From assembly GCF_045037415.1 (NCBI RefSeq), contig NZ_CP173438.1: a stretch of 64,000 nucleotides of DNA; one strand, 5' to 3'. Both the position numbers and the translations under genes were made by a program. Source of the DNA: Escherichia coli. GTDB taxonomy: Bacteria > Pseudomonadota > Gammaproteobacteria > Enterobacterales > Enterobacteriaceae. The notes under the pieces are model-generated. The model was not told the DNA's origin, ran no database searches, and was given only the letters and a program-made list of their open reading frames with translations. The stretch's first letter is position 1. Each line of letters starts with the position of its first letter. Shown here one piece after another: positions 58,215-61,421 of the stretch.

Positions 58215-59930
58215 ATGAATTCGTTACAAATCTTGAGTTTTGTCGGTTTTACGCTGCTGGTGGCGGTCATCACCTGGTGGAAGGTCCGTAAAACAGATAC
58301 CGGATCGCAACAAGGCTATTTTCTTGCCGGACGTTCACTAAAAGCGCCGGTTATTGCCGCTTCGTTAATGCTAACCAACCTTTCCACGGAACAACTGGTC
58401 GGCCTTTCCGGGCAGGCCTACAAAAGCGGCATGTCGGTGATGGGCTGGGAAGTCACCTCTGCAGTGACGCTGATCTTCCTCGCGCTAATCTTTTTACCGC
58501 GCTATCTGAAGCGCGGCATTGCCACCATCCCCGATTTTCTGGAGGAACGTTATGATAAAACGACGCGTATTATCATCGACTTCTGCTTCCTCATTGCCAC
58601 CGGCGTCTGCTTTCTGCCGATTGTTCTCTATTCCGGCGCGTTGGCGCTCAACAGCCTGTTTCATGTGGGTGAGTCGCTACAACTTTCCGATGGTGCGGCT
58701 ATCTGGTTACTGGTTATTTTGCTTGGTCTGGCGGGAATTTTGTATGCGGTGATCGGCGGACTGCGCGCAATGGCAGTGGCGGACTCCATCAATGGTATTG
58801 GGCTGGTTATTGGCGGGTTGATGGTGCCGGTATTTGGCCTGATCGCGATGGGCAAGGGCAGCTTTATGCAGGGCATTGAGCAACTTACCACCGTTCACGC
58901 CGAGAAATTAAACTCAGTCGGTGGCCCGACCGATCCCTTGCCGATTGGCGCGGCATTTACCGGTTTGATTCTGGTTAACACCTTTTACTGGTGTACCAAT
59001 CAGGGCATCGTGCAACGCACGCTGGCGTCAAAAAGCCTGGCGGAAGGGCAAAAGGGGGCACTGTTAACGGCGGTGCTGAAAATGCTCGACCCGCTGGTAC
59101 TGGTGCTGCCGGGGTTGATTGCGTTTCATCTGTATCAGGATTTACCGAAAGCCGACATGGCCTACCCGACGCTGGTCAATAACGTTCTGCCGGTGCCACT
59201 GGTGGGCTTCTTCGGTGCGGTGTTATTTGGTGCGGTGATCAGTACCTTCAACGGCTTTCTGAATAGCGCCAGTACGTTATTCAGTATGGGTATTTACCGG
59301 CGTATCATTAACCAGAATGCCGAGCCGCAACAGCTGGTCACCGTCGGGCGCAAATTTGGTTTCTTTATCGCCATCGTTTCGGTGATGGTCGCGCCGTGGA
59401 TCGCCAACGCGCCGCAGGGGCTGTATAGCTGGATGAAACAGCTCAACGGTATTTACAACGTGCCGCTGGTTACCATCATCATTATGGGCTTTTTCTTCCC
59501 GCGCATTCCGGCGCTGGCGGCAAAAGTGGCGATGGGGATTGGCATAATCAGCTACATCACCATCAACTATCTGGTGAAGTTCGACTTCCATTTCCTCTAT
59601 GTGCTGGCCTGTACGTTCTGCATCAACGTGGTCGTGATGCTGGTGATCGGTTTTATCAAACCGCGCGCCACGCCGTTCACCTTCAAAGATGCGTTTGCGG
59701 TGGACATGAAACCGTGGAAAAACGTCAAGACTGCGTCAATTGGTATCCTGTTCGCGATGATTGGCGTCTATGCCGGGCTGGCTGAATTCGGCGGCTACGG
59801 TACGCGCTGGTTAGCGATGATCAGTTATTTCATTGCCGCCGTAGTGATTGTCTACCTGATTTTTGACAGCTGGCGGCATCGTCACGACCCAGCCGTAACC
59901 TTTACTCCCGATGCAAAGGATAGCCTATGA
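58215..59930 (+). CDS. yidK: Sodium:solute symporter family transporter (571 aa)
   Basis: 571-aa polytopic membrane ORF; stop overlaps the yidJ start. Confidence 0.85.
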   Translation: MNSLQILSFVGFTLLVAVITWWKVRKTDTGSQQGYFLAGRSLKAPVIAASLMLTNLSTEQLVGLSGQAYKSGMSVMGWEVTSAVTLIFLALIFLPRYLKRGIATIPDFLEERYDKTTRIIIDFCFLIATGVCFLPIVLYSGALALNSLFHVGESLQLSDGAAIWLLVILLGLAGILYAVIGGLRAMAVADSINGIGLVIGGLMVPVFGLIAMGKGSFMQGIEQLTTVHAEKLNSVGGPTDPLPIGAAFTGLILVNTFYWCTNQGIVQRTLASKSLAEGQKGALLTAVLKMLDPLVLVLPGLIAFHLYQDLPKADMAYPTLVNNVLPVPLVGFFGAVLFGAVISTFNGFLNSASTLFSMGIYRRIINQNAEPQQLVTVGRKFGFFIAIVSVMVAPWIANAPQGLYSWMKQLNGIYNVPLVTIIIMGFFFPRIPALAAKVAMGIGIISYITINYLVKFDFHFLYVLACTFCINVVVMLVIGFIKPRATPFTFKDAFAVDMKPWKNVKTASIGILFAMIGVYAGLAEFGGYGTRWLAMISYFIAAVVIVYLIFDSWRHRHDPAVTFTPDAKDSL

Positions 59931-61421
59931 AACGCCCCAATTTTCTGTTCATCATGACCGATACCCAGGCCACCAATATGGTCGGTTGCTATAGCGGTAA
60001 GCCGCTGAATACGCAAAATATTGATAGTCTGGCGGCGGAAGGTATTCGCTTTAACTCCGCCTACACCTGTTCACCGGTTTGTACGCCTGCACGCGCCGGA
60101 CTATTCACCGGTATCTACGCTAACCAGTCCGGCCCGTGGACCAACAACGTCGCGCCAGGCAAAAACATCTCCACTATGGGGCGCTACTTTAAGGATGCCG
60201 GCTATCACACCTGTTACATCGGCAAATGGCATCTCGACGGTCATGACTATTTCGGCACCTGGCGAGTGTCCGCCGGAGTGGGACGCTGATTACTGGTTCG
60301 ATGGGGCGAACTATCTTAGTGAACTGACGGAAAAAGAGATTAGCCTGTGGCGCAATGGCCTAAACAGCGTCGAAGATTTACAGGCGAACCATATTGACGA
60401 AACCTTCACCTGGGCGCACCGCATCAGCAATCGGGCGGTGGATTTTCTGCAACAGCCCGCGCGCGCCGACGAACCTTTCCTGATGGTGATTTCGTATGAT
60501 GAGCCGCATCACCCGTTCACCTGTCCGGTGGAGTATTTAGAGAAATACACTGATTTTTACTACGAACTGGGTGAGAAAGCAGAGGATGACCTGGCGAACA
60601 AACCGGAACATCACCGCTTATGGGCGCAGGCGATGCCATCGCCAGTCGGTGATGACGGGCTTTATCACCATCCGCTCTATTTTGCCTGCAATGACTTTGT
60701 TGATGACCAAATCGGACGGGTCATCAACGCCTTAACGCCAGAGCAACGTGAAAATACGTGGGTTATTTATACCTCCGATCACGGCGAAATGATGGGCGCA
60801 CATAAGCTGATCAGTAAAGGAGCGGCGATGTATGACGACATCACCCGCATTCCGCTGATCATCCGTTCGCCGCAAGGGGAGCGGCGACAGGTCGATACGC
60901 CAGTCAGTCATATTGACTTACTGCCGACAATGATGGCGCTGGCAGATATTGAAAAACCAGAGATTCTGCCGGGGGAAAATATCCTTGCCGTAAAAGAACC
61001 ACGTGGCGTGTTGGTGGAATTTAATCGCTACGAGATTGAGCATGACAGCTTTGGCGGTTTTATTCCGGTGCGTTGCTGGGTAACGGATGACTTTAAACTG
61101 GTGCTCAACCTCTTCACCAGTGATGAACTTTACGATCGCCGTAATGACCCAAATGAAATGCATAACCTGATCGATGATATCCATTTTGCCGACGTTCGCA
61201 GCAAAATGCATGACGCCTTATTGGATTACATGGACAAAATTCGCGATCCGTTCCGCAGTTATCAATGGAACCTGCGTCCGTGGCGCAAAGATGCACAACC
61301 GCGCTGGATGGGGGCGTTTCGTCCACGCCCACAGGATGGTTATTCTCCAGTGGTACGCGACTATGACACCGGTTTACCGACACAAGGGGTGAAGGTGGAA
61401 GAGAAAAAACAGAAGTTCTGA
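59927..61421 (+). pseudogene. yidJ: Cys-type sulfatase YidJ, disrupted by a net +1 frameshift near 60257-60270
   Basis: N-terminal 111 aa with sulfatase signature CSPVCTPARAGLFTG and KWHLDGHDYFG in frame 2 stop at 60287-60289; the sulfatase continues in frame 0 (GECPPEWDADYWFDG…) to 61421. Confidence 0.85.

Follow-up and report, generated by a model that had tools for sequence, protein, structure and literature searches.

A one-base insertion interrupts the sulfatase gene yidJ in clade C strains of Escherichia coli ST131

The stretch of DNA analyzed here (the window: 64,000 nucleotides from contig NZ_CP173438.1 of the Escherichia coli assembly GCF_045037415.1) contains the yidL-yidK-yidJ-yidHGF locus, which brings together a regulator, a symporter and a sulfatase gene, yidJ, whose coding sequence is divided between two reading frames (Table 1). 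The yidK stop codon overlaps the yidJ start codon in the tetranucleotide ATGA at positions 59927-59930, so that the pair looks like one operon, and this overlap, together with the divergent yidL regulator, suggests that YidK and YidJ constitute an uptake and desulfation module for a sulfated solute. An earlier description of the window (the sequence-only reading) had called yidJ the only sulfatase gene of the locus, which is correct for the yidL-yidK-yidJ-yidHGF segment; E. coli has further sulfatase genes, aslA and ydeN, outside it.

Table 1. Features of the yidJ locus and other annotated elements of the window
Feature	Position	Strand	Basis or remark
yidL, divergent AraC-family regulator, intact	57182..58048	-	annotation of the identical SK1144 locus and ORF list
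yidK, solute:sodium symporter, intact	58215..59930	+	NF007790 match, 855 bits
yidJ pseudogene, whole	59927..61421	+	1495 nt, 1 base more than the intact 1494 nt
yidJ 5' fragment ORF, 120 aa	59927..60289	+	YidJ residues 1-111, then WRVSAGVGR and stop
yidJ lesion, CC pair in place of the single C of intact alleles	60258..60259	+	alignment with CMZE123, SE15, K-12, UTI89 and LR-46
Premature TGA, nine codons past the insertion	60287..60289	+	ORF reading and alignment
yidJ 3' remainder, codons 112-497 and stop, shifted frame	60261..61421	+	ORF, profile and domain matches
yidH, yidG and yidF, intact relative to K-12	61481..62674	+	ORFs, annotation and profiles
Rfam RNAs STnc410, AsdA and ROSE_2, in this order	6455-6612, 38579-38659, 54214-54286	-, -, +	expected core-genome features

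The intergenic region between yidJ and yidH measures 59 bp in the window (61422-61480), as it does in SE15 and UTI89, and lacks yidI. The corresponding gap in K-12 is 603 bp and includes the 149-amino-acid yidI gene on the opposite strand, and directly ahead of the yidH ribosome-binding site the 59-bp and 603-bp forms have unrelated sequences. Further downstream, yidF (62177-62674, 165 amino acids, annotated as a "radical SAM protein") matches the anaerobic sulfatase maturase profile (363 positions) only at positions ~160 to 245, which indicates that the N-terminal radical-SAM core is missing, and because the gene is equally long in K-12, the presumed maturase of this locus looks fragmentary across E. 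coli. An Rfam scan of the whole window returned hits to the STnc410 sRNA, the AsdA antisense RNA of dnaA and the ROSE_2 thermoregulator element at the gathering threshold, and nothing in or near yidJ.

The upstream yidJ frame opens with MKRPNFLFIMTDTQ (MKRPNFLF...), holds CSPVCTPARAGLFTG and GKWHLDGHDYFGT, and ends in WRVSAGVGR followed by TGA; the downstream frame carries ...GECPPEWDADYWFDGANYL... and stays open as far as the stop codon at 61419-61421. The two products match the NF010322 arylsulfatase profile at positions 5 to 107 and 142 to 462, respectively, in colinear order and without overlap, which identifies them as pieces of one split gene rather than a chance pair of open reading frames. 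This agrees with the sequence-only reading, which had placed a sulfatase N terminus in frame 2 with a stop at 60287-60289 after WRVSAGVGR, had followed the rest of the protein to 61421 in another frame, and had noted that the span less one base equals 498 codons. The intact genes of K-12, CMZE123 and SE15 each form a single ORF of 1,494 nt, that is, 498 codons including the stop, and encode 497 amino acids.

We compared yidJ (59927..61421) with 5,426 complete E. coli genomes and aligned representatives, and apart from the carriers of frameshifts, every representative that was aligned or looked up has the gene as a single 1,494-nt ORF. The allele of SE15 and CMZE123 (WP_000828477.1, a putative cytoplasmic S1 sulfatase of 497 amino acids) differs from that of the window by a single extra C and by nothing else, with zero substitutions: intact alleles read GGCA-CTGG where the window reads GGCACCTGG. 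The intact K-12 gene (WP_000828527.1), which occupies the same place between yidK and yidH, has 96.9% DNA identity to the window. Relative to these single-ORF orthologues the inserted C is an indel that is not a multiple of three; it turns codon 111 from ACT into ACC-T and is followed by nine wrong codons and a premature stop at codon 121. The lesion had previously been confined to 60257-60270 and explained most simply as one inserted base, with an alignment to an intact allele proposed as the check, and that alignment now places exactly one extra C at 60258/60259.

An 81-nt probe centered on the insertion (window positions 60218-60298) has an exact match in 410 of the 5,426 complete genomes, so the earlier question of whether related strains share the frameshift can be answered in the affirmative. 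The insertion is missing at this site from 4,675 of the 5,085 probe-matching genomes, and these 4,675 fall in the 95-99% identity band that a one-base gap alone would give. Carriers include EC958, JJ1886, JJ1887, CD306, uk_P46212 and several records labelled O25b:H4-ST131, and the intact, otherwise identical allele is found in SE15, Ecol_743, Ecol_448 and two O25b:H4-ST131 records, among at least 60 genomes in all. EC958 and JJ1886 belong to ST131 clade C and SE15 to clade A (PMC4134206), CD306 is classed as "C0", at the root of clade C (PMC4850260), and Ecol_743 and Ecol_448 have been placed in clades A/B (PMC5608912). The clade C and C0 references thus carry the insertion and the clade A/B strains do not, a placement that uses published assignments for these named strains and that indicates an origin of the insertion within ST131, roughly at the root of clade C. 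Positions 39001-64000 of the window are 100% identical to EC958 and to many other clade C genomes, and we conclude that the window comes from an ST131 clade C strain; the frameshifted yidJ of the clade C genomes AVS0362, EC958 and JJ1886 is the same allele, 100% identical to that of the window. Strain S9 (NZ_CP107122.1), otherwise 100% identical over 39001-64000, matches in two pieces; the 25,000-nt query corresponds to 25,776 bp in that genome, which implies that ~776 bp, possibly an IS element, are inserted somewhere in this stretch.

Intact or reconstructed YidJ has a PF00884 (Sulfatase) domain at residues 4 to 341 that covers positions 1 to 301 of the 301-position model (E = 8.7e-72), as well as an SGSH_C-like C-terminal subdomain at residues 300 to 434, and residues 2 to 444 of the reconstructed protein align with solved S1 sulfatases. 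These structures (9ihk, S1_30A; 6pt4, an exo-2S-iota-carrageenan sulfatase; 5g2v, a GlcNAc-6-sulfatase) have the C-x-P-x-R and DHG/HK motifs in common with YidJ. The solved S1 chains align from about residue 25 onward, whereas YidJ begins at the first conserved strand, which suggests that it has no signal peptide and is cytoplasmic. A literature search for yidJ found no paper characterizing the E. coli protein.

The break falls between the two sets of active-site motifs. MTD (residues 10-12), CTPAR (52-56, the C-x-P-x-R formylglycine motif) and GKWH (99-102) lie ahead of it, and DHG (284-286) and HK (292-293) lie past it in the 3' remainder. The full PF00884 domain is recovered in the reconstructed protein and the CTPAR motif in the 5' fragment, but the window encodes no uninterrupted polypeptide with both N- and C-terminal motifs, which are distributed over two frames. 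The yidJ gene of the window is a pseudogene of the S1 (PF00884) sulfatase family and very probably not a functional member of it. Because the active-site motifs are split by the break and neither piece holds a complete site, YidJ in this lineage is very likely without enzyme activity, a strong inference from the division of the catalytic motifs that supports the initial proposal that the insertion inactivates the gene.

We consider it highly probable that the yidJ allele of the window is genuine and vertically inherited, and that it lost its function when a C was inserted in codon 111, within ST131 and roughly at the root of clade C. The gene, undamaged in other respects, would have encoded a cytoplasmic sulfatase of the S1 (formylglycine) type, and translation from the normal start would now stop after 120 residues. 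The predicted product would retain the CTPAR nucleophile motif and the N-terminal metal/substrate residues but not the last two thirds of the catalytic domain, and any product of the downstream frame would lack the nucleophile. From there the mutation would have become a fixed marker of the clone (clade C, the fimH30 lineage), probably by hitch-hiking with its success rather than through selection for the loss of yidJ.

Elsewhere in the species the gene appears to be maintained. Ratios of nonsynonymous to synonymous divergence (dN/dS) among repaired yidJ alleles, calculated by the Nei-Gojobori method, range from 0.04 to 0.07, with 38 synonymous and 8 nonsynonymous differences between SE15 and K-12, and these values indicate that yidJ is normally kept by purifying selection; judged from the sequence comparisons, the ST131 lesion is a recent loss without subsequent decay. 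It is one of several independent losses. UTI89, S88, IHE3034, NU14, APEC O18 and ATCC 11775 have lost one A from an A4 run that follows GGGGG (the equivalent of 60976-60979, at about codon 350), a deletion that is present in 126 complete genomes and is annotated as frameshifted. Like the window allele, that of the UTI89/S88 group has a single-base frameshift fixed in a successful extraintestinal pathogenic E. coli (ExPEC) group; unlike it, the lesion is an independent deletion, and 16 synonymous substitutions separate the two alleles. A third independent frameshift, deletion of the A of GAT (Asp33; the equivalent of 60024), sits on a K-12-like allele in LR-46, from human feces in Ecuador. In B25FEP, from chicken feces, yidL, yidK and the 5' 90% of yidJ are gone, leaving the last ~200 nt of yidJ, and an IS200/IS605 tnpA remnant and a TnpB (InsQ) gene stand in their place. 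A further 295 of the 5,426 genomes have no match to yidJ at all.

The fixation of independent frameshifts in two major ExPEC groups, ST131 clade C (410 genomes) and UTI89/S88/IHE3034 (126 genomes), in a gene otherwise under strong purifying selection raises the possibility that the loss of yidJ is pathoadaptive, that is, positively selected in extraintestinal pathogenic clones. We regard this as unlikely, since two clonal events explain the counts and collections of complete genomes oversample these clones. Unrelated backgrounds show sporadic losses too (LR-46, B25FEP and the 295 genomes without a match), the partner genes yidK and yidL are still intact, and no yidJ phenotype was found in the literature search. 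The two clonal fixations and the sporadic losses instead fit drift and hitch-hiking in expanding clones. The more specific proposal that loss of the YidK-YidJ route was convergently selected in the pandemic extraintestinal clones, by the +1 change in ST131 and the -1 change in the UTI89/S88 group, seems to us slightly more doubtful still; if it were true, yidJ would act as an "antivirulence" or niche-restriction gene, and its inactivation would have benefited those clones.

The public annotation of the locus bears on a second alternative, in which the two ORFs are made separately and reassemble into an active split sulfatase. RefSeq/PGAP is inconsistent on the identical yidJ sequence: some genomes, such as SK1144, are given two CDSs, WP_001296570.1 (120 amino acids) and WP_228955806.1 (408 amino acids, starting at ATG 60195), and others are given one frameshifted pseudogene, such as QJP84_RS14020 of AVS0362 ("yidJ, pseudo, frameshifted"). 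The two-CDS call, which would favor separate products, is thus an annotation variant of a sequence that is called a pseudogene elsewhere. Between 60021 and 60620, none of the ATG, GTG and TTG codons of the downstream frame, all of which we listed, has a well-spaced Shine-Dalgarno sequence; the only upstream ATGs of this frame are ATG 60195, which an AAGG directly abuts, and ATG 60243, which no Shine-Dalgarno sequence precedes. The break also lies inside one continuous alpha/beta sulfatase domain, a single fold, and the layout stems from one recent mutation without compensating changes. For these reasons we hold a functional split gene, or reinitiation, to be very unlikely.

Full-length YidJ might also still be produced by programmed +1 ribosomal frameshifting or transcriptional slippage, given that skipping the U after ACC would restore the wild-type protein (ACT and ACC both encode Thr), with ...DYFGTGECPPEW... 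as the junction peptide expected if the frame were restored. At GGC ACC UGG CGA the A-site codon is neither a stop nor rare, slippery and hungry-codon motifs are absent, as is any homopolymer, and we found neither a Shine-Dalgarno-like stimulator immediately upstream nor an A/T run suited to transcriptional slippage. The yidJ site also differs from programmed frameshift genes of the prfB-like (+1) and dnaX-like (-1) types: its two-frame arrangement is a derived state of a single clone, the 4,675 probe-matching genomes without the insertion show that it is not conserved, the intact state is ancestral, and a slippery or stimulatory site is absent. We therefore reject programmed recoding as highly improbable, in line with the sequence-only reading, which had thought it unlikely and whose view is borne out by the lack of a motif and by the single ORF of the examined orthologues. 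Low-level spontaneous +1 frameshifting at ACC-U may nevertheless provide trace YidJ activity, as it would restore exactly the wild-type protein.

Single-base indels are the commonest assembly error, and the sequence-only reading had raised the possibility of a homopolymer artifact over an intact gene, but the site is a CC pair with no homopolymer run, 410 complete assemblies, made independently in many laboratories and over many years, share the identical allele, sister strains that are otherwise identical have a single C, and the distribution tracks the published ST131 clades, so a sequencing or assembly error is rejected as having a negligible chance of being correct.

The preferred reading, an inherited loss of yidJ in clade C, adds little that the databases do not already hold, as the lesion is known through public annotation, RefSeq flagging this allele as frameshifted in hundreds of ST131 genomes, and is an ordinary lineage-specific pseudogene. 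Literature searches on yidJ, and on ST131 together with pseudogene and sulfatase, returned no report of it, and neither the EC958 genome paper nor the ST131 evolution paper refers to it in its main text; the clade tables of the latter list substitutions only.

On its own, the yidJ lesion is minor, one among many pseudogenes of clonal lineages that are recorded in public annotation. The C/CC site nevertheless distinguishes ST131 clade C/C0 from the examined clade A/B strains by a single base and makes a clean marker for that purpose. The division of the catalytic motifs further implies that clade C strains are very probably without YidJ-dependent use of sulfated substrates, and the second, independent loss of yidJ within ExPEC makes metabolic streamlining in these groups a hypothesis that would be cheap to test.
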